From the NCBI GenBank assembly GCA_009781965.1, contig WQUS01000115.1, forward strand, positions 1-28,743: a stretch of 28,743 nt of DNA, read 5' to 3'. Source of the stretch: Bacillota bacterium. Lineage in GTDB: Bacteria; Bacillota; Desulfotomaculia; Desulfotomaculales; Desulfallaceae. Under the pieces are notes generated by a model. That model was not told the DNA's origin, did no database searches, and saw only the letters and a list, made by a program, of their open reading frames with translations. A program made the position numbers and the translations under genes. This document shows positions 4,335 through 27,846 of the stretch, piece after piece. Positions within the stretch are counted from its first letter, which is position 1. Every line of letters begins with the position of its first letter.

Positions 4335-4469
4335 CAGTGTTTGTTAGTACTCATAGTGACTACGGCACGCAAAACTATTAACCGTAAGCGATTTCTCGGA
4401 GAGCATGAGCGCACGGTTAATAGTTTTGCGTGCCGGCTCGATGCTGAACAGTAACGTGTGAACAGTAAC
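4335..4469 (+). repeat. Structured dispersed repeat, copy 1 (REP/MITE-like hairpin element)
   Basis: Perfect 23-bp inverted repeat 4363-4385/4413-4435 around AAGCGATTTCTCGGAGAGCATGAGCGC. Right end is TGAACAGTAACGTGTGAACAGTAAC. The left terminal motif is missing next to the heptamer array. Confidence 0.92.
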
Positions 4470-4514
4470 GGTAACACGTTGAAAAACAATTTAAATAAAG
4501 CGAAGTGTTGACCG

Positions 4515-4937
4515 GTGATTAAAAGATTGAACCATGTTGGCATCGCCGTTAAAGATTTAGACAGCGCCATTGCCTTCTTCGAGCAAACATACGGCGCCAG
4601 TTTGGTTTGGCGGATTAAATATGAGGACCAGCAGATCGAATCGGCTTTAATCGCCATTGGGGAAGTCCGTTTCGAGCTTACCGCCGGCCTCGACCAGGGG
4701 AGCAGCGTGGCCAAATTTATCGCCGCCAGGGGCGAGGGGATGCATCATGTTTCTTTAGAAGTGGAAGGGTTTGAGCAAGTACTGGCGGGGCTCAAAACGA
4801 AGGGGTTAAAGATCCTGGCGGAAGCCGACACGGAGGATTTTAAAGCGGCGTTTGTACATCCCAAAAGCAACCTGGGTTTGTTGATGGAAATCATCGAACC
4901 GAAAAAGGACGAACGCTCCTGGGGAGGTAAAGGGTAA
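4515..4937 (+). CDS. VOC/glyoxalase family protein, methylmalonyl-CoA epimerase-like
   Basis: NHVGIAVKDL, FELT, RGEGMHHVSLEV and AFVHPKSNLGLLMEIIE match the MCE/VOC metal-ligand pattern. GTG start. Confidence 0.85.
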   Translation: MIKRLNHVGIAVKDLDSAIAFFEQTYGASLVWRIKYEDQQIESALIAIGEVRFELTAGLDQGSSVAKFIAARGEGMHHVSLEVEGFEQVLAGLKTKGLKILAEADTEDFKAAFVHPKSNLGLLMEIIEPKKDERSWGGKG

Positions 4938-5036
4938 AGCATAGCTTCACAAACAGTGGTATTTGTTGCATAATAACTAAAAAGGAATGGTTCGAACTTC
5001 CTAATCCAAAAGACAACGGAAATGTGAGGTGTGCAT

Positions 5037-6791
5037 ATGAGTAACCTGCCCAAAGGGGGAAGCTTCGTCTTTGGTCAAACAACTCCCCAAGCTGTCTTTA
5101 CGCCGGAAGATTTTACTGACGAGCACAAAATGATTTTTCGCACCGCCGCCGGTTTTGTCGCCGACGAGGTATTGCCCAGAATGGAAGAATTGGAGGCCAA
5201 AAAAGAAGGCTTAATCCGGGAACTACTGGAAGCCTGCGGCGAATTAGGTTTACTGAGCGCCGATGTTCCGGAGGAATATGACGGCATGGCCATGGACAAG
5301 ATCAGCTCCACGATTATCGCCGAGTGCATGGGCCGGGGCGGTTCCTTTGCCATGACCCAGGGCGGTCAAACCGGTATTGGCAGCATGCCCATCGTGGTTT
5401 TCGGCAATCACGACCAAAAGCAAAGGTATCTGCCCGATATCGTCAGCGCCAAAAAAATCGGCGCTTACGCGCTCACCGAGCCGGAAGCCGGAACGGACGC
5501 CATGGCTATTAGAACCAAGGCTGTTTTAAGTCCCGACGGCAAGCATTATATTTTGAACGGCGCCAAACAGTTCATCACCAATGCCGGCATGGCCGATGTG
5601 TTTATCGTTTACGCCAAGATAGACGGAGACAAGTTTACCACTTTTATTGTTGACGCTGATTCCCCCGGCCTGTCCACCGGCCCGGAAGAAAAGAAAATGG
5701 GGATTAAAGGTTCGTCCACCCGCACGGTGATCCTGGAAGACGTGCAAGTTCCGGTGGAAAACCTGCTGTTTGAAATTGGCCGCGGTCATATTGTGGCGTT
5801 TAATATCCTGAATCTGGGCCGCTATAAGTTGGCCGCCAATTGTTTGGGCCACGCCAAATATGCTTTGGAACTGTCCGCCACCTACGCCAACGACCGTAAA
5901 CAGTTTAAAGTCCCGATTGCCAGTTTCGGACTGATTAAAGAAAAACTGGCCGAGATGGCCATTAAGATTTACGTGGCCGAAAGTATGGTTTACCGCACCG
6001 GCGGAATGTTGGAAGACATCCTGCACAGCCTGGATACTTCCGGTGAAAACGGCGCCCGGATTGCCGCCAAGGGCATCGAAGAATACGCTTTGGAGTGTTC
6101 CATAAATAAAATCTTTGCCACCGAAGCAGTGGCTTATTGCGTGGATGAGGGAGTGCAGATCCACGGCGGTTACGGATTTAGTTCCGAATATACCATTGAG
6201 AGGCTGTACCGGGACGCCAGGATTTACCGTATTTTTGAAGGGACGAATGAAATCAACCGGACCCTGATTCCCATTATCATGCTGCGCAAAGCGGCCCAAG
6301 GGGATTTGCCGCTCCAGGAAGCTATCGACAGGCTGCGGGAACAGCTCGCCGCGGGGGTACCGGTCAGGTCAGGGGAAGCGGAACTGGTGCAGGCGGCAAA
6401 AGATATTTTCCTGCTGACCATAGTCACCGGACTGAAAAAATATGGCCAGGACCTGTCCAAAGAACAGGAAATCCTGGGCCGGCTGGCTGATTTGGCGATC
6501 AGCGTTTTTGGCATGGAGTGCGCCTGGCTGCGGGCCTGTAAGGCATCGGACAGTCAAGGGGAAGCGGAGGCGCGGCTCAAACTCAATCTGGCTGCCGCTT
6601 ATATTAACCATACCTTGAGCGAAATGGTTCATATCGCCCAAGAAACCCTGGCGGCCCTTGCCGCGGGCAGTGAACTGACCAGTCTTTTGGCTCATCTGCG
6701 GCAGCTGTCCGCATATATTCCCAAGGACACGGTGGCGTTAAGGAAGGAAATAGCCGCGGCTGTTTCGGAAGCCGGCAAGTATGTGGTGTAA
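5037..6791 (+). CDS. Acyl-CoA dehydrogenase (long FadE/AcdA type with C-terminal extension)
   Basis: AYALTEPEAGTDA, GAKQFITNA, KMGIKGSST, QIHGGYGF and RIYRIFEGTNEINR. SD GAGGT before ATG 5037. Confidence 0.95.
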   Translation: MSNLPKGGSFVFGQTTPQAVFTPEDFTDEHKMIFRTAAGFVADEVLPRMEELEAKKEGLIRELLEACGELGLLSADVPEEYDGMAMDKISSTIIAECMGRGGSFAMTQGGQTGIGSMPIVVFGNHDQKQRYLPDIVSAKKIGAYALTEPEAGTDAMAIRTKAVLSPDGKHYILNGAKQFITNAGMADVFIVYAKIDGDKFTTFIVDADSPGLSTGPEEKKMGIKGSSTRTVILEDVQVPVENLLFEIGRGHIVAFNILNLGRYKLAANCLGHAKYALELSATYANDRKQFKVPIASFGLIKEKLAEMAIKIYVAESMVYRTGGMLEDILHSLDTSGENGARIAAKGIEEYALECSINKIFATEAVAYCVDEGVQIHGGYGFSSEYTIERLYRDARIYRIFEGTNEINRTLIPIIMLRKAAQGDLPLQEAIDRLREQLAAGVPVRSGEAELVQAAKDIFLLTIVTGLKKYGQDLSKEQEILGRLADLAISVFGMECAWLRACKASDSQGEAEARLKLNLAAAYINHTLSEMVHIAQETLAALAAGSELTSLLAHLRQLSAYIPKDTVALRKEIAAAVSEAGKYVV

Positions 6792-6818
6792 ATAGTTTAA
6801 CTTATTGCAGATTAGTTT

Positions 6819-6931
6819 GTTACTGTACAGTGTTTGTTGATCCTCAAAGTGAATACGGCGCGCCAAACCGTTAACCGTAAGCGATTTCTCAGCGAGCATG
6901 AGCGCACGGTTAACGGTTTGGCGTGCCGCTC
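6819..6931 (+). repeat. Structured dispersed repeat, copy 2 (right end truncated)
   Basis: Starts GTTACTGTACAGTGTTTGTT. 23-bp stem 6856-6878/6906-6928 has one G-T pair and the same apical segment. Similarity stops at the stop codon of the convergent repressor gene. Confidence 0.92.
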
Positions 6932-7806
6932 TATTTTTTGCTTAATTCCCAGTGCATGTCCAGGATGGCTTTAACCTTTTCCGGTTTGATGTGGTAGCTC
7001 CCGGCGGCTTCAATAATCTCAACCCACTGTTTTTGGGCGGTGCTTTTAATCTGCAGCAGGTTTAAATAATCTCCCAAGCCGGGCGCCTGTTCTCTGAGCA
7101 AACCCACCATCACGCCGACGATGCGGTGCTGCGGTCCGAAAAGGATATCTTCGTAGTCCGGGTTGGCGGAACGAAGGAAAGCCTGGTCGCCCTGCTGGAT
7201 GTAAATCTTCAGGTAAGCGTTCCAGACGGTATCCTCCAATCCGGCGGCTACGATTTGACCGCTTTGCGCGATGGAGCTTTGTTTAAACAGCGCCAGATCC
7301 CCTTGGTTAATGCCGGCGTAAATCATACTGTTGCCGTTAACCCGGAGGAGAAAGTCAGCCTTGGTGTGTGAGGGTATCTCTACCTGGCTTTCCCAGTTTT
7401 GCTCCGCCAAAACCGGAAGGCCGGCATGTATCTGGCCCAGCACCGGCTTAAACTTTAAATAGACCGCCGGCTCCTCCAACGCCCGCATTACGGCCAGGCG
7501 CTGCTCCCGGCTGAGCGGAATTTCATCGATCGTTAACCGGATATTTTCATTGCTCATCAGGTGGCGCAGATCAATGCTGTCCAGCGACTGCCGGATATTG
7601 GTGCGGCCGAGCAAATAATCAGCGGAAACATTAAAAAAGTCTGCGAAATTGCTCAGCGTTTCAAAGTCCGGTTTGCGGCTGCCCTGTTCGTAATTGGCAA
7701 TGAGACCCCGCGAATACGGAAGCAATTCAGCCATTTTATATTGGCTGATATTTTTTTCTTTTCTCAAGGCGGCCAAACGCCGGCCGAAGCTATTATCATG
7801 CAACAT
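6931..7806 (-). CDS. CI/LexA-like repressor: XRE HTH + S24 autopeptidase + C-terminal SinI/SinR-like helical hairpin
   Basis: N-terminal HTH (LRKEKNISQYKMAELL..SRGLIANYEQGSRKP), cleavage-site-like IHAGLP, catalytic Ser in VNGNSM and Lys in AYLK, extra C-terminal segment WVEIIEAAGSYHIKPEKVKAIL. Confidence 0.88.
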   Translation of the reverse strand: MLHDNSFGRRLAALRKEKNISQYKMAELLPYSRGLIANYEQGSRKPDFETLSNFADFFNVSADYLLGRTNIRQSLDSIDLRHLMSNENIRLTIDEIPLSREQRLAVMRALEEPAVYLKFKPVLGQIHAGLPVLAEQNWESQVEIPSHTKADFLLRVNGNSMIYAGINQGDLALFKQSSIAQSGQIVAAGLEDTVWNAYLKIYIQQGDQAFLRSANPDYEDILFGPQHRIVGVMVGLLREQAPGLGDYLNLLQIKSTAQKQWVEIIEAAGSYHIKPEKVKAILDMHWELSKK

Positions 7807-7822
7807 GTTACCACCTGATCAT

Positions 7823-7851
7823 ATTATAAGAAACAATCAGTTTCCATACTA
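7823..7851 (-). promoter_or_regulatory. Putative sigma-A promoter for the repressor (perfect -10, weak -35)
   Basis: Minus strand TAGTAT(7851-7846)-N17-TATAAT(7828-7823). Overlaps operator O1. Confidence 0.5.
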
Positions 7852-7901
7852 CGTTAGAAACAAATAGTTTCTAATAATATTGACAGAAACGTAACGTGTC
7901 T
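7829..7901. promoter_or_regulatory. Three palindromic operators AGAAAC-N5-GTTTCT in the divergent region
   Basis: O1 7829-7845 AGAAACaatcaGTTTCC; O2 7854-7874 TTAGAAACaaataGTTTCTAA (perfect arms); O3 7885-7901 AGAAACgtaacGTGTCT. Confidence 0.8.
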
Positions 7902-7909
7902 ATTAAAAT
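7880..7909 (+). promoter_or_regulatory. Putative sigma-A promoter for the cro-like gene
   Basis: TTGACA(7880-7885)-N18-TAAAAT(7904-7909), with O3 occupying the spacer. Confidence 0.65.
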
Positions 7910-7949
7910 AAGGTAATCCTGTTATTTAGTTATATAGAAGGTGAAATAA

Positions 7950-8162
7950 ATGACTGAACTGGCGGCGCTTATAAAGCTTCGGGCCGGCAGGCCGCGTTCC
8001 AAGGTGGCCAAAGAGCTGGGCATTACGACGCAAATGCTGGGCGCCCTTGAAAGGGGCGACAGGTTGCCGTCGCTTATGCTGGCCAAAAAAATTGCCGTAT
8101 ATTACGGGGTTACCATTGATGATCTTTTTTTTCAAGAGCGGGGAAACAAAACGTCTCCTTGA
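7950..8162 (+). CDS. Small XRE-family HTH protein (Cro-like)
   Basis: 70 aa, SKVAKELGITTQMLGALERGDRLPSLMLAKKIAVYYGVTIDDLFF. SD GAAGGTG. Divergent from the repressor. Confidence 0.88.
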   Translation: MTELAALIKLRAGRPRSKVAKELGITTQMLGALERGDRLPSLMLAKKIAVYYGVTIDDLFFQERGNKTSP

Positions 8163-8187
8163 GTCAGGCTAAGGGGGCGATGCGGGG

Positions 8188-8388
8188 ATGGTTAAAAAGA
8201 CCTGTCCCAACTGTAACCGGGACAGCTTCAGCACTATGCTGCCCGCTCAATGGTACTGTCCTTATTGTAATGCGGATATTAGCCAGGCGGCAGCAAAGGC
8301 TTTGCTGTTATCCTCTATTTCATTGCGGGATTTGTCACGGCGCAGGGAGGCCGACAGGAATGTAAAGGCGGAAGAGATGCAAGCTTAA
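8188..8388 (+). CDS. Small Zn-ribbon protein of unknown function
   Basis: CPNC-x13-WYCPYC in 66 aa, G-rich SD, co-oriented with the cro-like gene. Confidence 0.7.
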   Translation: MVKKTCPNCNRDSFSTMLPAQWYCPYCNADISQAAAKALLLSSISLRDLSRRREADRNVKAEEMQA

Positions 8389-8435
8389 CGGAACCAATAA
8401 TTAGGCGCCGCTAAAAAAGTTGGATTTTCACCAAG

Positions 8436-8467
8436 GCCCACAATCATTTGCCATACGGATTGTGGGC
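8436..8467 (+). terminator. Inverted repeat after the Zn-ribbon gene, possible terminator
   Basis: GCCCACAATC-N12-GATTGTGGGC followed by an AT-rich tract. Confidence 0.5.
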
Positions 8468-8564
8468 TTAATTATTATTATAGGTTTTATAATTGCCGCG
8501 GAATTGGTAAAATAACTTAAAGTTAATCCTTTAGGCAACGGTTTTAACCGCGGAGGAGTGTAGG

Positions 8565-9374
8565 ATGAGAATAATTGTTTTAATTAAACAGGTTCCCGGC
8601 ACTGCGGACAGCCGCATGGATCCCGAAACAGGGGTGATGATCCGCGACGCGGGCGAAAGCATCATGAATCCGCTGGATGAACATGCGGTTAGCGAAGCGG
8701 TGAGCATAAAGAAAAGCCATCCCGGTACGGAAGTCGTGGCCCTGAGCATGGGCCCCCCGGCGGCGGAAAAGGTTCTCCGGGAAGCTTGCGCCAGGGGCGC
8801 CGACAGGGGGATTTTGCTTTCCCATAAAGCTTTCGGCGGTTCCGACACTATTGCTACCTCCCGGGTACTGGCGGCGGCGATCCGCAAAGTCGGCGATGTT
8901 GATTTGGTTTTGGCCGGGGAGAAAGCCACCGACGGGGAAACCGGGCAAACCGGGCCCATGACGGCGACGCTGCTGGATATGCCGGTGATTACCTTTGTGC
9001 ACCGGCTGACCGTAAGCGACAAACATATTATCGCCCAGCGCATGGTGGAAGAGGGCGTCGAAGAGCTGCAGGTCAATTTGCCGGCGCTGGTAACGGTGGT
9101 TAAGGATATCAATAACCCCCCTCTGCCCACCATCAGAGGCTATGTTCTGGCCAAGAAACAAACCTTCCCCGTCTGGGGGCCGGCGGATCTGGAAATTGAC
9201 GCGGGGGTGCTGGGTCTGAAGGGGTCGCCGACCCGGGTGGTCAAAGTATTCACCCCCAAGCTTTCCCGGCAGACTGTCTTTTACACTGCCGATACTGAAG
9301 AACTGGCCTCGGCCGCGGCGGCGGCTGTGTTAAAAACGATCCGGGAGCGGGGGCTGGTGAAAAGGGATGAGTGA
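8565..9374 (+). CDS. etfB: Electron transfer flavoprotein beta subunit (EtfB/FixA)
   Basis: MRIIVLIKQVP, MNPLDEHA, LSMGPP, GADRGILL, GSDTIATS, GEKATDGETGQTGP and GLKGSPTRV. Confidence 0.95.
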   Translation: MRIIVLIKQVPGTADSRMDPETGVMIRDAGESIMNPLDEHAVSEAVSIKKSHPGTEVVALSMGPPAAEKVLREACARGADRGILLSHKAFGGSDTIATSRVLAAAIRKVGDVDLVLAGEKATDGETGQTGPMTATLLDMPVITFVHRLTVSDKHIIAQRMVEEGVEELQVNLPALVTVVKDINNPPLPTIRGYVLAKKQTFPVWGPADLEIDAGVLGLKGSPTRVVKVFTPKLSRQTVFYTADTEELASAAAAAVLKTIRERGLVKRDE

Positions 9375-10383: not shown

Positions 10384-10384
10384 A

Positions 10385-16203: not shown

Positions 16204-16222
16204 AAAATCAACTCCCGCTAAC

Positions 16223-16248
16223 TCGAGGTTCGAAGTTCGAGGTTCGAG
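16223..16248 (+). repeat. Heptamer tandem array TCGA(A/G)GT, 3 units plus a partial
   Basis: tcgaggt tcgaagt tcgaggt tcgag, between htrA and the regulator. Confidence 0.9.
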
Positions 16249-16262
16249 ACTATGCACCAGGT

Positions 16263-17399
16263 TTATTTTTCCGCCAGGGTGATGATCACTATTCTGGGGC
16301 CGGTTTTATTTTCTACCTGGAGCCGCACTTGATCGCCTACTTTACTTTTGGCGATCAAGTCGGTGATATCGCCGGCGGTATTAATCTTCTGCCCGTTTAT
16401 TTTCAGAATGGCGTCTCCTTCCGCCAGGCCGGCTTTTTCGGCCGGTGAACCTGGTACCACTCCGGCCACGATAGCGCCGGTGTTGTCGGAGAGACCCAAA
16501 TTGGCGGCTAAATCGGCGTTGTTGTTTTGTAAATAAACGCCCATGTAAGGCCGGGAAATTTTGCCGTTGGTGATAAGCGTATTCACCACGCTCTTTACTG
16601 TGCTAGAGGGGATGGCAAAACCGATGCCCTGGGCATTGGCGTTGATGGCGGTATTAATACCGATTACGTCGCCTTTGAGATCCAGCAGCGGGCCGCCGCT
16701 GTTCCCGGGGTTGATGGCGGCGTCGGTTTGCAGCAGGTTTTTATACTGCCGGTTCTCAATGGTAATCGGCCGGCCTTTGGCGCTGAGTACGCCGCTGGTT
16801 ACGGTATGGTCCAGTCCGTAGGGATTGCCGATAGCGATTACCCATTCGCCCACCCGGGCGGCGTCCGAATCGCCGAATACCAGGGAAGGCAGATTTTGAC
16901 CCGCTTTCACTTTAAGCACAGCCAGATCCAACTCGGCGTCCGAGCCAACCAGAGTGGCCGGCAGCGGTTTATCCTGTTCGGAAAGGTAAACCTGGATATC
17001 CGTGGCCTGACTGACTACATGTTCGTTGGTTAGGATATAACCGTCTTTGTTGATAATAAAACCGGAACCCAATCCTTGCTGCATTTGTTGACCTTGGCCG
17101 GGGGCGCCGAAAAACTGCCGGAAAAAAGGGTCCATGTTTGGCGAAACCGGCTGGGTTGTTTCAATTTGCACTACCGCCGGGCTGCACCGGTCTACCACGC
17201 CGGCTATAACATCAGTGCCTTCCGGTGAGGGAGAAGAAGCATAGGCCACCGGCTCAGCGGCGCCTGCTCTGACGGAAAGGGCACTGTCTTTGGGGGCAAA
17301 GAAGAATACCCCCGTGATTAAGAGAATCTGCAGTACCAAGGCTACTGTCAGGCCGGTGGCCAAGCTTAACCGGTACTTGTCTTTGAACATCATGATCAC
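16263..17399 (-). CDS. htrA: HtrA/DegP-like serine protease (TM anchor, trypsin domain, one PDZ)
   Basis: [14 protein letters not shown] (His), DLAVLKV (Asp), [15 protein letters not shown] (Ser) and [16 protein letters not shown]. Confidence 0.95.
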
Positions 17400-17442
17400 C
17401 TTCCAAATAAAATTTTTATGATCATCATGATGACATCAACGG

Positions 17443-17459
17443 CTTAAGATAACCTGAAA
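17443..17459 (-). promoter_or_regulatory. Candidate OmpR-family tandem box TTTCAG-N5-CTTAAG upstream of htrA
   Basis: 11-bp-spaced hexamers on the minus strand, resembling CiaR/MprA-type direct repeats. Lies about 45 nt upstream of htrA. Confidence 0.4.
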
Positions 17460-17511
17460 ATAAAATAAAAAAATTTTCAGGTAACAAATTTCAGGCGCCG
17501 CATAATAAAAT

Positions 17512-17657
17512 GTTACTGGTCAGACCCTGTGTTTGTTATTACTCATAGCCCAGGCCCGTAAAGTTATTAACCGTAAGCGATTTCTCGAAGAGTATGAGCG
17601 CACGGTTAATAACTTTACGGGCCGGATGATGCTGAACAGTAACGTGTGAACAGTAAC
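17512..17657 (+). repeat. Structured dispersed repeat, copy 3
   Basis: Starts GTTACTGGTCA. Perfect 22-bp stem 17553-17574/17602-17623 has a different arm sequence. Apical AAGCGATTTCTCGAAGAGTATGAGCGC. Ends TGAACAGTAACGTGTGAACAGTAAC. Confidence 0.93.
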
Positions 17658-17911
17658 AATAAAACGCCACCTACTGTTATCTTAAAATTTTGTTCCTTCT
17701 TTTGTCAACCAAAACAACAAATTCCCCTGCTGGGTTTGAAGCGGCATTGCGGTTTTGCAGCAATTATTATATTATGTAAAGATATAATCCAAAATAAATA
17801 ATTAATAGATAAGTTAGAAGTCAAAACGAGCGACTTTGTGAAAATTATTCCAATGTTGGCTGAAATCTGATGTGGGCTGGAATATGATTGCGCATGAAAG
17901 GGGGGAACATT

Positions 17912-19603
17912 ATGGGGTCGGTAATGATTTTGAGCGTTATTGGCGGCATGGGGCTTTTGTTATACGGGATGTATATTATGAGCGAAGCCCTGCAAAAGAT
18001 AGCCGGACACAGGCTGCGGGACGCTCTTGGTTCGATAGCTCAGAACAGAGTGCTCAGCTTAATCATGGGCGCCTTGATTACAGTATTGTTTCAAAGCAGT
18101 ACCGCTACCACTGTAATTTTAGTGGGACTGGTAAACGCAACAATTATCACGCTGAAACAAACTTTGGGCATTATTCTGGGGGCTGATATCGGCACCGCCG
18201 TCACAGCCCAACTGATTGCCCTTAAAGTGACGGAGATCGCGCTGCCTGTGGTGGGTTTTGGCGCCATCATTATTTTCTTTGCCAAACGGGATAAATACCG
18301 CCGCATCGGTCAGGCGTTTTTAGGTTTTGGCCTATTGTTTTTGGGTTTGAAGATCATGGCCGACGCCATGTCTCCCCTTCGCGATTCGCCGTTTTTTACC
18401 AATCTTTTTTTGCATATGAGTGATAATCCCCTCTTAGCCATTTTTACGGCGGCGGTGTTTACCTTTTTGGTCCACAGCAGCGCGGCCACCATCGGCATTA
18501 TGATGGTGTTGGCTATGCAGGGCATGTTGCCCCTGGTGAGCGCCATCTATTTGATTTATGGCGCCAATATAGGCACTTCTTTTACCGCCGTACTGAGCAG
18601 TCTCAGTTCTACCAGAGAAGCCCAAAGAGTTGCCGCGGCCCACGTTATTTTTAAAGTAGCCGGGGTATTGCTGTTTCTGCCTTTTTCCATTCCCTTTGCC
18701 AAATTGCTGGCCTCCGTTTCTTCGGATCCCGGTTTTCAAGTGGCCAACGCCCATACTTTTTTCAATATCGCCATCGCGGTGATCTTTCTGCCCTTTACGA
18801 ACTACTTTGCTGTTTTTTTGGAAAAAATTTTACCGGCCAAGAAAGGTTTCACCGGCGAGCCCATTTATCTGGATGATTCTTTGATTGGGACCCCTTCTAT
18901 TGCCATCGGGCTGGCTTTAAAAGAAGTTATTTATATCTCCGATAACGCGCTGAATATGTTAAAGGAAGTAAAAATGGTCTTAGAAAGTTATAGCGCCGAT
19001 CGGGCGGAATCAATTTTAAAGCTTGAAAACAGGGTGGACCAGCATACGTTGGCCACCAGGTATTATCTGACCCGGATCTTGAGAAACGCTCTGTCCCGGG
19101 AGGATTTTACCAGATGCTTAAGGCTGATTAATATCGTTAACGAGTTGGAAAAAATAGGCGATGTGATTGAAAAGGATTTGCTTTACCTGGCCGAAAGCAA
19201 AGAAATTAATAACGCCAAGTTCTCTGAAGAAGGCAAAAGAGAGCTGGAGTTGATGTACAATAATATTTATAAGCTGGCTAACATGGTGAACAATATTATT
19301 ATGACCAATGATTCCCGGACTACTTATGAGGCCTTGTGCCTGCAGGAGGAAATTACCGATCTGGAGTTCAGATCGCGTATTTCGCATATTCAGCGGCTCA
19401 GTAAAGGGATCAGCGAATCCGAGAACAGCAGCGCCATTCACTTGGAGTTAATCAACGCTTATTTGAGAATTGGGCAGCATTTGTTCCAGATTATTGAAAT
19501 TGCCAATGATCCGGAAATATTGGATACGAAAAACATGCATGATTTTTATACCGGCGATAATATTTTCGATGCGGCGGTTCCCAAACAGGTTACTAAGCAG
19601 TAA
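17912..19603 (+). CDS. Na+/phosphate cotransporter family protein with C-terminal PhoU-like domain
   Basis: Duplicated motifs QSSTATT...ILGADIGT and HSSAATI...GANIGT, AHTFFN, and a PhoU-like helical C-terminus (ELEKIGD). Confidence 0.93.
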   Translation: MGSVMILSVIGGMGLLLYGMYIMSEALQKIAGHRLRDALGSIAQNRVLSLIMGALITVLFQSSTATTVILVGLVNATIITLKQTLGIILGADIGTAVTAQLIALKVTEIALPVVGFGAIIIFFAKRDKYRRIGQAFLGFGLLFLGLKIMADAMSPLRDSPFFTNLFLHMSDNPLLAIFTAAVFTFLVHSSAATIGIMMVLAMQGMLPLVSAIYLIYGANIGTSFTAVLSSLSSTREAQRVAAAHVIFKVAGVLLFLPFSIPFAKLLASVSSDPGFQVANAHTFFNIAIAVIFLPFTNYFAVFLEKILPAKKGFTGEPIYLDDSLIGTPSIAIGLALKEVIYISDNALNMLKEVKMVLESYSADRAESILKLENRVDQHTLATRYYLTRILRNALSREDFTRCLRLINIVNELEKIGDVIEKDLLYLAESKEINNAKFSEEGKRELELMYNNIYKLANMVNNIIMTNDSRTTYEALCLQEEITDLEFRSRISHIQRLSKGISESENSSAIHLELINAYLRIGQHLFQIIEIANDPEILDTKNMHDFYTGDNIFDAAVPKQVTKQ

Positions 19604-19722: not shown

Positions 19723-19803
19723 TAACTTACTTTCTTTTAGCTCCATTTAGAGCTGGGTGTAAAATAATTAGCCTCCGTTTTTGAGCTTGGTGCTAGCTGA
19801 AGT

Positions 19804-19851
19804 GGCAGTGAATAGTAACGGCAGTGAATAGTAACGGCAGTGAATTGTAAC
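19804..19851 (+). repeat. 16-bp tandem repeat GGCAGTGAAT(A/T)GTAAC x3
   Basis: Read directly. Each unit ends in a variant of the element terminal motif TGAACAGTAAC. Confidence 0.9.
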
Positions 19852-19971
19852 GGTAAAAATGGCGTTTTTTGCCTACAGCTTTTTTATCATTGATTTGCCA
19901 TTGGCGGGCAGAATAGCAAAGTGAGCTTTGCACAATTACTAATTACTATTGAGGGGAAGGGAGGTGTAACG

Positions 19972-21087: not shown

Positions 21088-21867
21088 ATGTTTAAAGTAG
21101 CTACTTATAACGCCAATTCCGTCCGGGCCAGGCTGCCGATCATCATGGATTGGCTGGCGGCAGAAAAACCGGACGTGTTGTGTCTGCAGGAAACCAAGGT
21201 GGAAAACCACAATTTTCCCGCCGCTGATTTTAACGACCTCGGTTACCGGGTGCTTTATAAGGGACAAAAATCATATAACGGGGTAGCCGTTGCCAGTGTT
21301 CATGAATTGACGGAACTGTCAATTGATATTTCAGCTTTTGCCAGACCGGGGGAAGCGCGGCTGATTGCCGTGCAGGTTAAAGGCGTCAATATTATCAATA
21401 CCTATATCCCCCAAGGCAAAGCGCCGGACACCGATGAGTTTGCATACAAGCTCAATTGGCTCAGAGGCATGCGCGATGTCTTTGCCCGCGATTTCAGCCC
21501 CGACGCCTATTTGCTTTGGACAGGCGATTTTAATGTCGCTCCCGAGCCTATCGACGTACACAGTCCCGAAAAGCTGCTGGGTCATTTGGGTTATCATCCC
21601 ATGGAGCATCAGGCGCTGCAGTATGTGAAAGACTGGGGTTTTGAGGACATTTTCCGCCGTCATGTGCCCGAAGGCGGCCACTACACCTTTTTCGATTACC
21701 GGGTGCCCAACGGCGTAAAAAGAAAAATGGGCTGGCGGATCGACCATATCTGGACCACCGGGCCGCTGGCAGCATTATCCCGCGCCGCCCGTATTGATAT
21801 GGCGCCAAGGCTGAAAGAAAAACCGTCGGATCATACTTTTCTGGTGGCTGAATTTGAACTGGATTGA
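21088..21867 (+). CDS. xth: Exodeoxyribonuclease III / AP endonuclease
   Basis: ATYNANS, LCLQETK, YNGVA, NTYIPQG, TGDFNVA, YTFFDYR, GWRIDHIW and PSDH. Confidence 0.96.
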   Translation: MFKVATYNANSVRARLPIIMDWLAAEKPDVLCLQETKVENHNFPAADFNDLGYRVLYKGQKSYNGVAVASVHELTELSIDISAFARPGEARLIAVQVKGVNIINTYIPQGKAPDTDEFAYKLNWLRGMRDVFARDFSPDAYLLWTGDFNVAPEPIDVHSPEKLLGHLGYHPMEHQALQYVKDWGFEDIFRRHVPEGGHYTFFDYRVPNGVKRKMGWRIDHIWTTGPLAALSRAARIDMAPRLKEKPSDHTFLVAEFELD

Positions 21868-21953
21868 AGCAGATTGAACTGGATTGAAGTAAATTGAACT
21901 GGATTGAAGCAGATTGAACCGGATTGAAGTAGATTAAACTGGATTGAGCCGAT
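21854..21953 (+). repeat. 10-bp tandem array (TTGAANNNGA consensus) x10 with 20-bp higher-order period
   Basis: ttgaactgga alternates with ttgaag(c/t)a(g/a)a. The array begins inside the last xth codons and includes its TGA stop. Confidence 0.95.
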
Positions 21954-21988: not shown

Positions 21989-23113
21989 ATGCCGGATGAT
22001 AAACATGGGCCGCCAGCCGAGGCAAACCCGGGGGGCGCAAACGATGGCGGCGAAAACGAAGACCTGCGCCAAGGTCAAAATCGTAATGACGATAACGATG
22101 GCCATGCCGGCGACGACGGCTATGCTAACGGCGATGGCGGCAGCTATGATGACGACGATGGCGACAGCTTTGCCGATGATGACGGCGACGGTGATAGCTA
22201 TGACGATGATGACGGCGACGGTGATAGCGATGACGACGATAATGGCTATGAAGACGGCGATGCCGATGATTATGACGATTATCTGGAGGACGGTTACGAG
22301 GATGACCGGGATAAAGATTACCCGGCGGCTTACGATTTGGAATATCTGAAACAGCTTCCGGATGACGATGACGACGATTGGGAGGCTGAATCGGCAAAAG
22401 CGGCTAAACCTCCTTGGCTGCGCCTGGTGGCCCTTGGGACAGTGCTGATTTTTTTTGCCCTTGCCTTTGTGGTATCCTGGGCGGCGCTGCCCTTTCCATT
22501 GGCCGATCTGGTCAACCGTTCCCTGGAACTGCAGAAGGGCGGCGGCGTCCGGCAGCTGCAGGCGCCGGTAGTGCAGATAAATGTTGTCGCCCGGCAGGGG
22601 GCCGCTATTGGCGCGGAAAACAAGTCCGGCACCGGGTTCAATATCAGTCCGGAAGGATTGATCGTCACCAATCGCCACGTTATTGAGGGCGCGCTTAACA
22701 TGACCATTACTTTTTCCAACGGTAAAATCTACAAGGCCCAAAGCTGGCACACCCAGTCTGACTATGATTTGGCCGTGATCAAACTGCAGGGGGAAAACCT
22801 GCCGGTGGCGCCGGTTAACCAGGGCGGCTATCCCCAAATCGGGGAGCAAATCACCGTGGTAGGTAATCCGCTGGGCTTGAATAAGGTGGTGGCGGACGGG
22901 ACAGTAGACGGTTATCTGCGCGTGGGGGACAGCCCCGGACCGGTGTTCAGCATCGATGTTCCGGTTTACCCCGGCAACAGCGGCAGCCCGGTGTTTAACA
23001 GCAGCGGCCAAGTAATCGGGGTGGTTTTCGCCAACTACCAAAAGGAAGTTAACGGTCAAACCAAAACCTGTGGTCTGAGTGTGCCCATTAGGTTTTTAAA
23101 GACGCAGGCTTAG
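21989..23113 (+). CDS. Trypsin-like (S1C) serine protease without PDZ, with long Asp/Gly-rich N-terminus and TM anchor
   Basis: GTGFNI, TNRHVI (His), YDLAVI (Asp), GNPLG and PGNSGSP (Ser). TM helix near residues 144-167. Low-complexity acidic N-terminus. Confidence 0.9.
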   Translation: MPDDKHGPPAEANPGGANDGGENEDLRQGQNRNDDNDGHAGDDGYANGDGGSYDDDDGDSFADDDGDGDSYDDDDGDGDSDDDDNGYEDGDADDYDDYLEDGYEDDRDKDYPAAYDLEYLKQLPDDDDDDWEAESAKAAKPPWLRLVALGTVLIFFALAFVVSWAALPFPLADLVNRSLELQKGGGVRQLQAPVVQINVVARQGAAIGAENKSGTGFNISPEGLIVTNRHVIEGALNMTITFSNGKIYKAQSWHTQSDYDLAVIKLQGENLPVAPVNQGGYPQIGEQITVVGNPLGLNKVVADGTVDGYLRVGDSPGPVFSIDVPVYPGNSGSPVFNSSGQVIGVVFANYQKEVNGQTKTCGLSVPIRFLKTQA

Positions 23114-23131
23114 TAAATGGGAGGACCAGCG

Positions 23132-23806
23132 ATGTCAAGAGTAGCGCAAGTACTGGCGCTGCCCAAACAGTTTGGCAAAACCGGCGGTTATGATCTTCAG
23201 GTTGTCAGCTCTCAAGCGTCGGTGCAGGATTACCTCGATGCTTTAAACCGGGCGGTGGAGGAATTGCCTTTAAGCCGCAGCCGGAACAAAGGGACCGACT
23301 GCGCCGGCTGCGATTTGTGCTGCGGGGAACGTGCGCCCCTTACCTGGCCTGACATAGGGAGACTAAGAAAACATCTTGGTTTGAACGGGGAGCTCCAGAG
23401 CCTGCTGGATCGGGTGGCCCATATTGCGGTAGACGGCCCGGTGGTCGACATTACTCTTCGCCGTGCAGAGGACGGCCACTGCTGTTTCCTGGACCGAAGC
23501 AAAAAACTGTGCACCATTTATCCGGCCCGACCGCTGGTTTGTCAAACCTTTATCTGCTGTAACGGAACCGGCCGGGCGGCCGGAGTGCGTAAATGGGTGG
23601 TTAATTTGGGTGAAGACGAGTTGGTGCGCCAGTGGCTGCAGCAGGCCGCGGCGCGAGGGGAAAAACCGCGTTATCATTGGGGGAACCGGCCCAATCTGCG
23701 GCTTGACGACTGGCAGCCTAACGCCTTTACGGGCCTTAAGCAGTACTGTCAAGTACTGCTTAAGGATATTTTGCCGCCTGATTTATGGCATAAGTTGTTA
23801 AAATGA
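23132..23806 (+). CDS. YkgJ-family Cys-cluster (Zn/Fe-S) protein
   Basis: CAGCDLCC, CCFL and CTIYPARPLVCQTFIC. GGAGG SD before ATG 23132. Confidence 0.88.
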   Translation: MSRVAQVLALPKQFGKTGGYDLQVVSSQASVQDYLDALNRAVEELPLSRSRNKGTDCAGCDLCCGERAPLTWPDIGRLRKHLGLNGELQSLLDRVAHIAVDGPVVDITLRRAEDGHCCFLDRSKKLCTIYPARPLVCQTFICCNGTGRAAGVRKWVVNLGEDELVRQWLQQAAARGEKPRYHWGNRPNLRLDDWQPNAFTGLKQYCQVLLKDILPPDLWHKLLK

Positions 23807-23832
23807 CACTGGGAAATGGCGCTGTTAACTGC

Positions 23833-24996
23833 TTAACGCACTTTTCTGCTGAGCCTGGCGGTGTGCTTTTTCAACAGCAGTTTATATTTATCGTATTGTT
23901 CTTGCAGATATTCCCGGCCTTTAAACTTGGGATTGTTCAGCACCGTGAAGCCGAGCAGCGCCAGCAGGAGGAGCAAAACCAGGAACAAGGCTGTTTTCCA
24001 GCTTTGGCGAATGCTGGCCGGGCTGTTGATACCCTCAGTGGCGGTATTTCCATTGGCGCTGTTCTGCAGCTGATCAGCAGGCGGCGGATCCAGACCCAGC
24101 AATATCGGTACTGATTGTGCCAGTAGGCTAATACCGTTTTCGGCCGCCCTTTTTTCGTTGGTGTAAGTGCCGGCCTCAATAAGCAGGGCGGTGGAGAGCA
24201 GATCCTGGTTATAATTACCATGGGCAATATAAATTTCCTTCACCAGTTTAGGGTTTTGTTTATTGCTAAAAGCCAGCAGCCGCTTGGCGAAATCCAGGTT
24301 AGCAGCCATTTTGGGGTTCTGCCGCCCAACCACCAACCGCAGTTGGGTGGCTTGCCGATCAGCGGCGTGCTCGTAAAATTTGGGGTTGTCCACACCGTCC
24401 CGGTGCACGTCAAACATGGCCGCCGGTCTTTTTTTGAGCAATTTGAACGCGGTCCGGCGGGAGCGGTAGTAAGCGTTGGCGTCATGGGGGTCGTGGGGCG
24501 TGCGATCGTAAAGGACATTAACCTGTTCCTTTTTTAAAGCGGTGCTTAAGGAATTGCCCACCTGATAAATGCCCCCCTTAAAAGGGATGGTGTAGGTGCC
24601 GTCCGAAGGCAGGTAGGATTCATCCGAATGAGTATGATATATGGCGATCGGGCGTTTGACCCATTCGTCTTTAGCCGCTGCCGGTATTGTAAGATGGTCA
24701 TAATATTTAACCATGGCCAGATAATCTTGATCCCGGCCCATCAGTTCCACCCGGGCAATTTTTTTCCTTATTGCCGTCACCCGGTAATGCAGCCCGCCGG
24801 CGCTAATAATTTCGTCGCCGATATAGGGATGGCGCGAAGTTATGGTCACCAGACCGCCCTTTTGATTGACGAAACGGTAATTGTTGCCGGTTTGATGGTC
24901 GTTGTTTGCTTTATTGCCGCCTTGCACAATCAGGAATAATAGCGCCAGCAGTAATAATAAACCCAACGGAAAAACAGTTTTAAATTTGCACATCAC
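23833..24996 (-). CDS. spoIIP: Stage II sporulation protein P (amidase/endopeptidase)
   Basis: N-terminal TM, IYHTHSDESY, HDANAYYRSR, FDVHRDG, LVVG, GNYNQDL and LLIEAG. Confidence 0.92.
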   Translation of the reverse strand: MMCKFKTVFPLGLLLLLALLFLIVQGGNKANNDHQTGNNYRFVNQKGGLVTITSRHPYIGDEIISAGGLHYRVTAIRKKIARVELMGRDQDYLAMVKYYDHLTIPAAAKDEWVKRPIAIYHTHSDESYLPSDGTYTIPFKGGIYQVGNSLSTALKKEQVNVLYDRTPHDPHDANAYYRSRRTAFKLLKKRPAAMFDVHRDGVDNPKFYEHAADRQATQLRLVVGRQNPKMAANLDFAKRLLAFSNKQNPKLVKEIYIAHGNYNQDLLSTALLIEAGTYTNEKRAAENGISLLAQSVPILLGLDPPPADQLQNSANGNTATEGINSPASIRQSWKTALFLVLLLLLALLGFTVLNNPKFKGREYLQEQYDKYKLLLKKHTARLSRKVR

Positions 24997-25168
24997 GCCA
25001 CAACTCCCTGATTATACCTGAAAGATGCTTGAAATAACTTAACTTAAAAGAATTTTTCCCCGAACCGGCGGAGAATTATTATCCTTTTGCCGAGAAAAAA
25101 ATATAATGCTGTATCTAGTGTTGTGCCATTTGCGCGGAATAAAAACAAGCTCCGGGAGTTGGTTGCTG

Positions 25169-25507
25169 ATGAATAACCAAGAAACGCCGCCTTGTCCCAG
25201 CGGACGTTACTTAAAGATTGCCGCAGGCGACACCCTTTACCTGATTGCCCAGCGGGTGGGCACCACAGTTTCCGAATTGCTTTTGTTAAATCCTGGTCTG
25301 GATCATTTGCAGCTGCAGATCGGGCAACTGCTGTGCATCCCTCAGCGACCCTGTCCTTCCATGGTTTTCTGGGAAGTATCACCGGGCGATACTCTTTTTA
25401 CTATCGCCAAAGCCTCCGGTACCACCGTAGGGAAGCTGTTGGAGTTAAATCCGGGCATTGATCCCTTGAGCTTGCAGATTGGGCAGGCGGTTTGCCTGCC
25501 CGGGTAA
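25169..25507 (+). CDS. Two-LysM-domain protein (SafA-like spore coat/cortex protein)
   Basis: Two repeats of CP...GDTL..IA...GTTV..LL.LNPG.D...LQIGQ..C.P. GGGAG SD before ATG 25169. Confidence 0.88.
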   Translation: MNNQETPPCPSGRYLKIAAGDTLYLIAQRVGTTVSELLLLNPGLDHLQLQIGQLLCIPQRPCPSMVFWEVSPGDTLFTIAKASGTTVGKLLELNPGIDPLSLQIGQAVCLPG

Positions 25508-25515
25508 GCAAAGTC

Positions 25516-25548
25516 TCGAGGTTCGAGGTTCGAAGTTCGAGGTTCGAT
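25516..25548 (+). repeat. Heptamer tandem array TCGA(A/G)GT, 4 units plus a partial
   Basis: tcgaggt tcgaggt tcgaagt tcgaggt tcgat. Confidence 0.92.
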
Positions 25549-25568
25549 TTAAAGCTACTGGGCAGTGA

Positions 25569-25636
25569 GTTTACTGTTCACGCGTTACTGTTTGGCGTGC
25601 CTGGGCTTAGAGTACCAACAAACACTGAACAGTAAC
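25569..25636 (-). repeat. Internally deleted copy 5 of the structured repeat (opposite orientation)
   Basis: Minus strand reads GTTACTGTTCAGTGTTTGTTGGTACTCTAAGCCCAGGCACGCCAAACAGTAACGCGTGAACAGTAAAC: both ends present, most of the hairpin absent. Confidence 0.85.
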
Positions 25637-25816
25637 AGCCGATTTGATCGGGGCAGACAAATTTACTTTCCAGCCAGGAAAATAAATTCGTCATGCAGAA
25701 AAGGACATGCATATGACGATATCTGACGACATCTGGCGTTCGACAATTCATCAACAATTCTTCAAGACGAACAGCACTTATAGACGCAACGCGCCGCTAA
25801 ACTGGAGGAGAGTAGA

Positions 25817-27280
25817 ATGGAAAAGGTTAGAGATAGGGATAGGGATTTAAAGCGCTATACGCTGCTGGTGTCATCCGCCGCCGGTTTTCTGGCGCCTTTT
25901 ATGGGCAGTTCGGTCAACCTGGCGATCCCGTCCATCGGTCTGGCATTTAACGCCAGTACTTATATGTTAAGCTGGCTGGCGACCAGTTATATCCTGGCCT
26001 CGGCAGCCTTATTGCTGCCCTTTGGACGCTTGGCCGATATTATCGGCCGGAAGAAAATATTTGTCATTGGTATAATTACTTTCTGCCTTTTTACGCTGCT
26101 GTGCGGGCTGGCTTGGTCCATTGAGTCCCTGGTAGTCTTCCGTGTCCTGCAGGGTATTGCCAGCGCCATGCTTTTCAGCACCAGTATGGCCATCCTCACC
26201 TCGGTATTCCCGCCCTATGAACGGGGTAAGGTGTTGGGCATCAACGCGGCTGCCGTATATGTAGGCTTGTCTTTGGGACCGGTTTTGGGCGGGGTAATTA
26301 ATCACAACTTTGGCTGGAAGTACATTTTTTTAATGACCGCGTTGATTTCCCTTGGTGTTGTTGTGCTTGCTTTGGGCAAGCTGAAAGGCGAATGGACCGG
26401 CGCCCGGGGTGAAAAATATGACTTTGGCGGCGTGGCTTTATATGTGGTCGGTCTGGTGGCGCTGACCTATGGGTTTTCGTCGGTGGCCGCTTCCCAATGG
26501 GCCTGGCTCTTTATGGGAGTCGGCCTGGTTTTGATAGTATTATTTGTCATGTGGGAGGTGCGTGTGCGGCAGCCGATGATAGACATGCACCTGTTCACTA
26601 ACAACCCCCCCTTTGTTTATTCCAATCTGGCGGCGCTTATAAATTACAGCGCCACCTTTGCGGTGGGTTTTCTGCTTTCTTTGCACTTGCAATTAGTAAT
26701 GGGTTATAATTCCCAGGCTGCCGGACTGATTCTGCTCGCCCAGCCGGTTTTAATGGCGGTGGTATCGCCAATTTCCGGCAGATTTTCCGACTTGGTGGAA
26801 CCACGGATCTTGTCCTCCTGGGGCATGGCCCTGACCGCTTTGACCCTGGTTTGTCTTTGTTTTATTAGCGCGACTATGCCCTTGTGGATCTTGATAGCCG
26901 ATCTGGCCGTTCTGGGCATTGGCTTGAGTTTGTTCTCCACCCCCAACAGCAACGCGGTAATGAGCGCGGTGGAAAAAAGTTATTATGGGGTTGCCGCTTC
27001 TGCCCTGGGGACTATGCGCATGGTCGGACAAGCTTTAAGCATGGCGATTGTGACCATGGCCTTGGCAATGTATGTGGGGCATACTGAGCTCACCGCCGTT
27101 AATGGCGAACATCTTTTGGCCGGCGCCAGACTGGCGTTAATTATTATGTCCGTGCTTTGTTTTGTGGGTATCTTTGCCTCCCTGGCCAGAGGCAAAGCCG
27201 GAGGGGCGAAAGACACAGCCGCCAAATTGTCCCGGGCCGGCGGCCGGGCTGGCAATGCCGGCCCAAAGGGCGAAAATTAA
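25817..27280 (+). CDS. MFS transporter, DHA2 (14-TMS) type
   Basis: Motif A GRLADIIGRKK, FRVLQG, motif C GLSLGPVLGG, and about 14 hydrophobic segments. Confidence 0.93.
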   Translation: MEKVRDRDRDLKRYTLLVSSAAGFLAPFMGSSVNLAIPSIGLAFNASTYMLSWLATSYILASAALLLPFGRLADIIGRKKIFVIGIITFCLFTLLCGLAWSIESLVVFRVLQGIASAMLFSTSMAILTSVFPPYERGKVLGINAAAVYVGLSLGPVLGGVINHNFGWKYIFLMTALISLGVVVLALGKLKGEWTGARGEKYDFGGVALYVVGLVALTYGFSSVAASQWAWLFMGVGLVLIVLFVMWEVRVRQPMIDMHLFTNNPPFVYSNLAALINYSATFAVGFLLSLHLQLVMGYNSQAAGLILLAQPVLMAVVSPISGRFSDLVEPRILSSWGMALTALTLVCLCFISATMPLWILIADLAVLGIGLSLFSTPNSNAVMSAVEKSYYGVAASALGTMRMVGQALSMAIVTMALAMYVGHTELTAVNGEHLLAGARLALIIMSVLCFVGIFASLARGKAGGAKDTAAKLSRAGGRAGNAGPKGEN

Positions 27281-27405
27281 ATTTCAATCTTTTTTAATCA
27301 CTTCTTGCAATTAAGCTAAAATGTGTCACACATACTCGATAGATTTGAGGGAACCATAACATTGAAAGTGAGAAACAACTAATTGACAAAAGGGGGTTAT
27401 TTTAA

Positions 27406-27651
27406 TTGGCTACAGGACAAAGGAGTAATCGTAAACTGGTCCCACAGGCTTCCCAAGCGATGGAACAATTTAAATATGAAACAGCGGCCGAACTGGGCAT
27501 TCCCAACTATCACGGTTATCTTGGCGACGTACCTTCCCGGATCAACGGTTCGGTAGGAGGCAACATGGTCAAGAAAATGATTGCCTCTTACGAACAGAGT
27601 CTGGCTCAAGGTCAACAACCGCCGACTCCCCAGATGACCAACAAGCTTTAA
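27406..27651 (+). CDS. Alpha/beta-type small acid-soluble spore protein
   Basis: FKYETAAELG (GPR cleavage region) and SRINGSVGGNMVKKMI. TTG start after AAAGGGGG. Confidence 0.93.
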   Translation: MATGQRSNRKLVPQASQAMEQFKYETAAELGIPNYHGYLGDVPSRINGSVGGNMVKKMIASYEQSLAQGQQPPTPQMTNKL

Positions 27652-27659
27652 GACAAGTA

Positions 27660-27702
27660 ATCAAAATACTGCCGGCCTGAAGAAGGCCGGCAGTATTTTG
27701 AT
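27660..27702. terminator. Terminator hairpin after SASP
   Basis: ATCAAAATACTGCCGGCCT-gaaga-AGGCCGGCAGTATTTTGAT, 19-bp perfect stem. Confidence 0.85.
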
Positions 27703-27703
27703 C

Positions 27704-27846
27704 GTTACTGTTCAGTGTTTGTTGATCCTCAAAGTGAATACGGCACGCCAAACCGTTAACCGTAAGCGATTTCTCAGCGAGCATGAGCGCACGGTTAACG
27801 GTTTGGTGTGCCGCTCGATGCCGAACAGTAACGTGTGAACAATAAC
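27704..27846 (+). repeat. Structured dispersed repeat, copy 4 (most complete)
   Basis: GTTACTGTTCA left end, 23-bp stem 27741-27763/27791-27813 with one G-T pair, conserved apical segment, right end CGAACAGTAACGTGTGAACAATAAC. Confidence 0.93.

Follow-up and report, generated by a model that had tools for sequence, protein, structure and literature searches.

Four intergenic copies of a long hairpin with an almost invariant apex lie in the window, by which we mean the whole 28,743-nt stretch of DNA analysed here. They raise the question of what kind of sequence this is, which type of enzyme moves it and why the arms of the hairpin stay paired while their sequence changes. An earlier note on this DNA described a dispersed family, perhaps of non-autonomous elements, and this description was borne out by copies spread through the whole genome with no gene inside them.

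Copies and remnants in the window

All four hairpin copies are present where, and with the layout in which, they had been described. The features of the window are as follows.

4282–4328, plus strand: heptamer array TCGARGT of 6.6 units (tandem repeat finder), which replaces the left terminus of copy 1 and equals the dimer linker
4329–4469, plus strand: copy 1, without the left inverted repeat, in place of which stands the junction TATGCA-GTGTTTGTT (heptamer linker)
4364–4385, 4386–4412 and 4413–4434, plus strand: left arm, apex and right arm of copy 1
4445–4455 and 4459–4469, plus strand: the two right terminal motifs of copy 1
6819–6931, plus strand: copy 2, left terminal repeat at 6819–6829, right terminus absent
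6857–6878, 6879–6905 and 6906–6927, plus strand: left arm, apex and right arm of copy 2
16220–16254, plus strand: heptamer linker standing alone (TAAC, four heptamers, TATGCA), without a hairpin unit, where a short gap separates two minus-strand ORFs
17504–17511 and 17658–17665: target duplication of copy 3, AATAAAAT and AATAAAAC, matching at 7 of 8 positions
17512–17657, plus strand: copy 3, complete monomer, left terminal repeat at 17512–17522 in the variant GGTCAGACCCT
17553–17574, 17575–17601 and 17602–17623, plus strand: left arm, apex and right arm of copy 3
17633–17643 and 17647–17657, plus strand: the two right terminal motifs of copy 3
19780–19853, plus strand: lone right-end remnant, a stretch like the right spacer and then a 16-mer three times in tandem
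25516–25547, plus strand: heptamer array of 4.6 units, adjoining the deletion remnant at 25569–25636
25569–25636, minus strand: internally deleted remnant without apex, its left end, with the first part of the left arm, fused directly to the doubled right terminus
27704–27846, plus strand: copy 4, complete monomer, directly after a terminator-like hairpin
27704–27714, 27742–27763, 27764–27790 and 27791–27812, plus strand: left terminal repeat, left arm, apex and right arm of copy 4
27836–27846, plus strand: the second of the two right terminal motifs of copy 4
Flanks of copy 4: TTTTGATC and TTTCTATC, matching at 6 of 8 positions

The doubled right-end motif TGAACAGTAAC was found again, as were the truncated ends of copy 1, which lacks its left terminus, and of copy 2, which lacks its right end and abuts the stop codon of a minus-strand gene. 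The apex is identical at 23 of 27 positions in the four copies, the variable ones being the 3-nt inner loop and one Y. Between copies 1 and 3 there are four arm differences, every one mirrored on the opposite arm as claimed; for copies 1 and 4 the three mirrored differences also hold, and there is one extra change, which gives a G-T pair. The copies are more than simple terminators, in agreement with the earlier view. To that description the window adds the terminal inverted repeat, the 8-bp duplications, the two remnants and the lone heptamer linker; the 16-mer core of the remnant at 19780–19853, GTGAATAGTAAC, shares 11 of 12 positions with the right terminal motif.

Copy number and distribution

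In the fragmented genome (2.56 Mb, 86.6% complete) the apex pattern was matched 289 times with up to two mismatches and its reversed control not once, and 352 units were counted when an inner loop of 3–6 nt was allowed, a density of about one unit for every 7 kb assembled. The family takes several forms: non-coding monomers of 125–150 bp, mobile dimers of 245–272 bp (about 260 bp) whose units are linked by a captured heptamer array, and a smaller sister family, B, with the same termini, a related apex and an unrelated stem. Genome-wide, 129 of 173 heptamer arrays have an apex no more than 120 bp away. Nearest-neighbour identity among the assembled monomers is only 82–97%, which speaks against current movement, although the youngest copies are probably those that break the assembly. 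Of 299 fixed-loop apex matches (up to three mismatches), 138 are no further than 200 bp from a contig end, and the poor state of the assembly can be attributed to the element itself.

Searches by apex pattern, BLASTN and terminus pattern did not find the family in 161 further species of the order, and neither did a covariance model in 150 of them. Nothing similar was seen in the plasmids, phages and viral contigs searched. The family does occur in termite-gut material, in contigs from two further metagenome assemblies and in sequencing runs. An extra run (X3, of unknown kind) contains short pieces only, at low depth, and the locus was found in no RNA run. Comparison with Rfam gave no match at the gathering threshold, in keeping with the earlier failure to recognise a named family; below threshold there were only generic hairpin (miRNA precursor) matches of 18–27 bits against thresholds of 80–107. 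A metagenome scan with the doubled terminus returned copies of the element and three human-gut contigs only. In the latter the doubled 11-mer stands between response-regulator and kinase genes, and we take these contigs to be unrelated to the family.

Termini, target duplications and the search for a transposase

The sequences GTTACTGTTCA and TGAACAGTAAC are inverted copies of each other and thus form a terminal inverted repeat. The element ends in the 11-bp repeat GTTACTGKTCA, direct at the left end and as reverse complement at the right, and at one end the motif is usually doubled and sometimes tripled in tandem; genome-wide it is matched 567 times and its reversed control 19 times. Of 102 complete monomers 28 are flanked by a perfect 8-bp target-site duplication, and in 64 at least six of the eight positions match where about two copies would be expected to do so. 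No other length works, perfect matches occurring only at 8. Dimers carry the same duplication (11 of 21), and perfect 8-bp duplications were read by eye in the printed flanks of several family B copies.

Empty sites, which the earlier note had proposed to look for at orthologous loci, were found on contig C385 and not in the window, where copies 2 and 3 lie at synteny breaks against the nearest same-genus relative and the Desulfocucumis contig is non-syntenic upstream. Three elements at two C385 sites are absent from the syntenic region of a same-genus genome (G019), in which the target of both sites is present once. The position of copies 2 and 3 at synteny breaks suggests that the family may have driven genome rearrangements.

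Terminal repeats of 11 bp together with an 8-bp duplication are what a DDE-type transposase working in trans leaves behind. We therefore consider it highly probable that this is a gene-less MITE moved by such an enzyme. The duplication would arise from cuts staggered by 8 bp at intergenic targets that are AT-rich and often terminator loops, and the cognate transposase would be encoded outside the assembled part of the genome. In one termite-gut Desulfotomaculia lineage the family would have expanded to at least 350 units as monomers, transposing dimers and family B. The intact hairpin with its core would be required in cis for mobilisation, for example as a second binding site or as a structure in single-stranded or cruciform DNA, so that only lineages keeping the core would amplify while inserted copies decay.

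The enzyme had been expected to be encoded away from the copies, and indeed no transposase gene in the assembly is bounded by the termini of the element. An autonomous element with these termini was found neither in the 86.6%-complete assembly, a fragmented genome in which absence is weak evidence against such a partner, nor in 161 related genomes or the metagenome scan. Genome self-BLAST revealed no high-identity multi-copy insertion sequence, and Pfam searches of the genome gave no Y1_Tnp, IS256, ISL3, IS1595 or IS6. The resident transposases (an IS66, two IS3, one IS1634-like and one IS5-like) do not have the terminal repeat of the MITE. Two convergent pairs of terminal motifs 350–6000 bp apart enclosed ordinary genes. 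An IS3 beside a right terminus on contig C239 was rejected as partner, since it is inserted in the heptamer linker of a dimer with a 3-bp duplication of its own. The likeness of the apex (GTAAGCG, CGCTCATGCTC) to the resident IS66, which starts with GTAAGCGTCAAA, is at chance level, as are all its matches to the MITE.

The hairpin and its core

The covariation of the hairpin, claimed from the four window copies, holds in a wider sample. Across 49 copies 96.2% of stem cells are paired and 11 of 28 pairs change on both sides; the covariation score of 0.228 was reached in none of 500 shuffles (0.109 ± 0.006) and fell to 0.017–0.064 when the partners were slid. This covariation is mainly between sublineages, which suggests that an intact hairpin with an invariant core of about 45 nt is needed for propagation. 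The distal 14 bp of the stem vary freely yet remain paired, and the proximal 8 bp with the apex, which make up this core, are constant across sublineages and common to family B, the shared motif being AGCGATTT, a 3-bp mini-hairpin and YATGAGCG. Family B and one hybrid copy, on C205, share these termini and this core but have a stem of unrelated sequence, and both families have one overall fold with z-scores from −7 to −10. Rare changes in place consist of 45 single-side changes and three independent compensated doubles. A K-turn-like internal loop at the apex was considered and dropped, the required tandem G-A pairs being missing by eye.

Other explanations were weighed against these data. The earlier note had favoured a REP/REPIN-like or IS200/IS605-derived palindrome whose hairpin is read in single-stranded DNA by an HUH enzyme (RAYT/TnpA) or an integron-type recombinase. 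A long hairpin whose stem changes are compensated and whose sequence-specific apex contains unpaired bases would suit such an enzyme, and Bertels and Rainey are said to have reported REPINs with compensated stems in 2011. With REPIN/REP sequences and their RAYT the family has in common high-copy intergenic hairpins with compensated stems and signs that pairing matters for the spread of the element and not for the locus. It differs from them in its terminal inverted repeats, its 8-bp duplications and its conserved apex, and no RAYT was found; in the analysed copies the part near the apex is constant and the distal arms vary, whereas in REPINs the REP arms are conserved. Y1_Tnp (PF01797) had no match in the incomplete 86.6% assembly, while control genomes matched, and in place of the cassette array beside an integrase, with R/L core sites and no target duplication, that marks integron attC sites we found copies dispersed singly between unrelated genes, with 8-bp duplications. 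Neither HUH nor integron systems leave such an exact duplication, with the target present once at empty sites, and because of it this recognition is largely refuted and extremely improbable. The hairpin might instead serve the host chiefly at the RNA level, as an mRNA stabiliser, a processing site, an attenuator or a small RNA, and be carried about by the MITE, its apex selected locus by locus. The copies are intergenic and often beside terminators, and RNA-level effects have precedents in Correia and ERIC elements. Per column, the hairpin has private changes at about half the rate of termini and spacers (32 over 71 columns, compared with 52 over 54), although the apex count is biased, and its depletion partly an ascertainment artefact, because copy detection needed a recognisable apex. 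Despite the asymmetric apex the copies are not clearly biased in orientation relative to neighbouring genes (97 in the same and 123 in the opposite direction, and 101 against 132), Rfam gave no match and stem changes in inserted copies are mostly uncompensated. The suggestion of an ncRNA family gains no support from this, and such a role is very unlikely.

It is also conceivable that the arms of a MITE stay complementary without selection, through mismatch correction, template switching or recombination of hairpin blocks, the core reflecting recent ancestry. Compensated differences per stem pair track the per-column divergence outside the stem (for example 0.065 and 0.065), and with a compensated rate about equal to the rate of single changes outside, block recombination or arm-to-arm conversion could suffice. 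Some copy pairs have four compensated pairs and only three outside positions changed, which resembles block exchange, and several pairs of variable stem sites show all four allele combinations. However, a full change of stem and a shift from CTC/GAG to AGC/GCT have left the core and its mini-hairpin in place in both family B and the C205 hybrid, and the core is constant where its adjacent spacers differ between sublineages. Arm-to-arm correction must be weak at best, since the in-place changes are so rarely compensated, and we regard maintenance without selection as somewhat unlikely. A further account is that mobilisation depends on a double recognition, in which a DDE enzyme cuts the terminal repeats, and so leaves the 8-bp duplication, while the central hairpin with its sequence-specific core of about 45 nt is read by its structure. 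Such a transposition system, with DDE-type ends and hairpin recognition combined, seems to us unlikely as well and slightly more so. Its driver would be a transposase or an accessory protein, and its footprints would be the core common to two stem-unrelated families and the compensated stem evolution between sublineages.

Returning to the gene-less MITE moved in trans, the kind of element is well known; it is the central hairpin that is unusually constrained. Correia/NEMIS elements of Neisseria are 100–150 bp long, gene-less, moved in trans and bounded by terminal inverted repeats with a fixed-length duplication, and hundreds of intergenic copies, folding as long hairpins, occupy a few percent of a small genome. 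The MITE resembles them in its small size, lack of genes, inverted-repeat ends, fixed duplication, hundreds of intergenic copies, share of a few percent of a small genome, long hairpin and probable mobilisation in trans. Unlike them, it duplicates 8 bp and not TA, contains an internal 22-bp hairpin of its own, distinct from the terminal repeats and with an invariant core, doubles its terminal motif at one end and forms mobile dimers with a heptamer-array linker. It has no sequence similarity to anything searched. ERIC/IRU of enterobacteria, like the MITE, are imperfect intergenic palindromes, of about 127 bp, with internal indel size variants and reported conservation of pairing; they are not known to have a clear target duplication or repeats of a terminal motif, and they are spread over many genera, whereas the MITE family is confined to one lineage. 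Duplications of 8 bp are also made by the IS66 family, the ISBst12 group and the IS6 family. IS66 ends start with GT (GTAA...) and IS6-family ends contain ACTGTT or TCTGTT, and the ends of the MITE are like both. The length of the duplication would fit a derivative of the IS66 family, whose one member present in the genome carries other ends and is not significantly similar to the MITE. No IS6 transposase was found in the genome.

The family is a clear lineage-specific MITE burst in an uncultured termite-gut Firmicute, with none in about 160 related species. Its hundreds of copies, two families and dimers amount to a natural experiment on a central hairpin in a DDE-mobilised element, whose wider relevance grows if it is true that the hairpin is a cis requirement. 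The dimers, for their part, spread a host heptamer repeat.

Anatomy, abundance and distribution of the element

The dispersed hairpin element is a new, very abundant and lineage-specific MITE family. The type of element is ordinary, though some of its features are uncommon: an inner hairpin that covaries around an invariant core, a core that two families with unrelated stems have in common, a doubled terminal motif, and a captured heptamer repeat carried by mobile dimers. The four copies in the window (4335-4469, 6819-6931, 17512-17657 and 27704-27846) have exactly the positions and layout described in the earlier note. A complete monomer is 125-150 bp long and consists, from left to right, of:

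left terminus, 11 bp, GTTACTG(G/T)TCA
GTGTTTGTT, with three variants at the left end
spacer, 15-18 nt
left arm, 22 nt
apex, 27 nt
right arm
spacer, 9 nt
terminus in reverse complement, in most cases as two tandem copies and sometimes as three

Left and right ends together make up a terminal inverted repeat, a feature absent from the earlier description, and single-strand folding of whole elements predicts that the termini pair around the long inner hairpin (z-scores of -7 to -10). About two dozen lone exact 11-bp terminal motifs (2-3 expected by chance) adjoin ordinary sequence on many contigs of the window's own genome and may be truncated copies or footprints. Elsewhere in the window, a 20-bp tandem repeat of 4.7 copies (21854-21947) lies directly upstream of an ORF, inside which 15-, 24- and 30-bp repeats (22114-22241) correspond to a predicted Asp/Gly/Ser-rich stretch.

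The host is an uncultured member of Desulfotomaculia from a termite-gut metagenome, with a Desulfocucumis MAG as the top protein match (82%), and its genome comprises 2.56 Mb in 425 contigs (51% G+C, 86.6% complete). At up to 2 mismatches the apex pattern gave 289 matches in this genome and 0 for the reversed control, rising to 352 when the inner loop was allowed 3-6 nt. The assembly was broken by the repeat, as 138 of the 299 fixed-loop matches at up to 3 mismatches are within 200 bp of a contig end. In the source run the summed contig depth of the apex was ~16,600 vs ~7 on the flanks, a figure which is not a copy number and which suggests copies far more numerous than those assembled. Around the copy at 17512-17657 (window 16800-18400), hairpin-core summed contig depth was ~2000-fold (sequencing run X1) and ~700-fold (run X2) that of single-copy flanks, ratios far exceeding the assembled copy number; the gut sample may include additional strains or species that carry the element.

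Neither the apex pattern, the whole element (BLASTN) nor the doubled terminus was found in the genomes of 161 other species in the order, 4 of the same genus included. The covariance model built here had no match in the 150 of these genomes on which it was run, Rfam gave no match above threshold, and no element was found in the plasmids, phages and viral contigs searched. In a metagenome scan, contigs from two additional termite-gut metagenome assemblies contained the element. Three human-gut contigs (L151, L154 and L161) contain a doubled 11-mer (GTTACTGTTCA, CGC, GTTACTGTTCA, CGC) between OmpR-type response-regulator and sensor kinase genes; their host is an unrelated gut bacterium, and this repeat is probably a regulator's direct-repeat operator, matching the MITE terminus by chance.

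Insertion signature and candidate mobilisers

Perfect 8-bp direct repeats flank 28 of the 102 complete monomers, and in 64 of them the 8-bp flanks are alike at at least 6 of 8 positions, where shuffled pairings would give about 2. Perfect flank matches occur at length 8 only, and the duplicated target sites are AT-rich. Comparison of orthologous loci did reveal empty sites: contig C385 is syntenic with the same-genus genome G019, which is without the three elements found at two C385 sites and holds each target once, one of them within the loop of a terminator hairpin. Together, the duplications and empty sites are the signature of staggered-cut, DDE-type insertion. This differs from the signature of the HUH or integron mechanism to which the fold had been tentatively linked, and that proposal is therefore not borne out.

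No Y1/HUH, IS256, ISL3, IS1595 or IS6 transposase was detectable in the 86.6%-complete genome. None of the transposable elements it contains (one IS66, two IS3, one IS1634-like and one IS5-like) carries MITE ends. Among families with 8-bp duplications, we take IS66-type (GTAA...) and IS6-type (ACTGTT) ends to be the closest to the MITE terminus, as a lead only. The IS66-family element (L131, contig C314) looks complete; its left end starts GTAAGCGTCAAA and it encodes tnpA (131 aa), tnpB (123 aa), tnpC (577 aa) and a 92-aa ORF.

Orientation relative to neighbouring genes has no clear bias (97 vs 123; 101 vs 132) and copies are somewhat enriched between convergent and divergent genes, which counts against a simple terminator or strand-specific RNA role and agrees with the earlier remark that the copies are not simply terminators. 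The window copies at 6819-6931 and 17512-17657 are situated exactly at synteny breaks in relation to G019, the closest same-genus genome. The acyl-CoA dehydrogenase cluster and the repressor gene are on different G019 contigs. In G019 and in G016, another same-genus genome, 6.7-9 kb separates the genes that flank the copy at 17512-17657. These breaks suggest MITE-associated rearrangement or deletion.

Stem covariation and a sister family

The stem covariation noted in the window was also evident among 49 copies, in which 96.2% of stem cells are paired and both-side changes occur at 11 of 28 stem pairs (86 cells). The covariation score was 0.228 vs 0.109 +/- 0.006 after shuffling, with 0 of 500 shuffles reaching 0.228, and the slid-partner control gave 0.017-0.064. 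Compensated variation is confined to the distal 14 bp of the stem. Hardly any change occurs in the proximal 8 bp (TTAACCGT / ACGGTTAA) or in the apex. Across 188 hairpin copies, 78 different left arms were counted.

Rare single-copy changes are mostly uncompensated, with 45 single-side changes vs 3 independent compensated doubles (0.24 expected by chance), so compensated differences lie mainly between sublineages, which fits selection on what can amplify. It is also possible that compensation is mainly caused by inter-copy recombination or arm-to-arm conversion. Between copies, compensated pair changes keep pace with single changes outside the stem and some copy pairs resemble whole-hairpin swaps, which indicates that such exchange contributes.

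The smaller sister family, B (~135 bp, ~11 copies), has the termini of the main family, A, and 8-bp duplications that are, read by eye, perfect at several copies. Its 19-bp stem is unrelated to that of A, while its apex has AGCGATTT, a 3-bp mini-hairpin and YATGAGCG in common with it, the mini-hairpin being AGC/GCT in B and CTC/GAG in A. One copy, on contig C205, is a hybrid in which a B stem carries an A apex.

Multimers and the heptamer array

The 352 units are arranged as 259 singles, 40 dimers, 3 trimers and 1 tetramer, with a multimer period of ~123 bp. In multimers the right arm of the upstream unit is cut to its first 9 nt and followed by a heptamer array (TCGARGT, 3-6 units) and then by the next unit. 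Dimers (245-272 bp) bear their own 8-bp duplications, matching at at least 6 of 8 positions in 11 of 21, and thus move as units. Of 173 heptamer arrays in the genome, 129 are within 120 bp of an apex, while same-genus genomes have only 3-6 heptamer-pattern matches each (~3-4 intergenic loci), without the MITE. Most likely a host heptamer repeat was captured and spread by the MITE. Some arrays in the same-genus genomes G016, G017 and G019 (L191-L200) are situated between tRNA genes, some are followed by inverted heptamers so that a hairpin is possible, and two pairs of loci look orthologous across species. In one MITE dimer (locus L135, contig C239:8252-10836) an IS3-family element (~1020-2490 in locus coordinates) is inserted into the heptamer linker. 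This element has orfA and orfB with a frameshift site at an A-run; its ends are TATAATGGACCC...GGGTCCATCATA and its 3-bp duplication is GTT.
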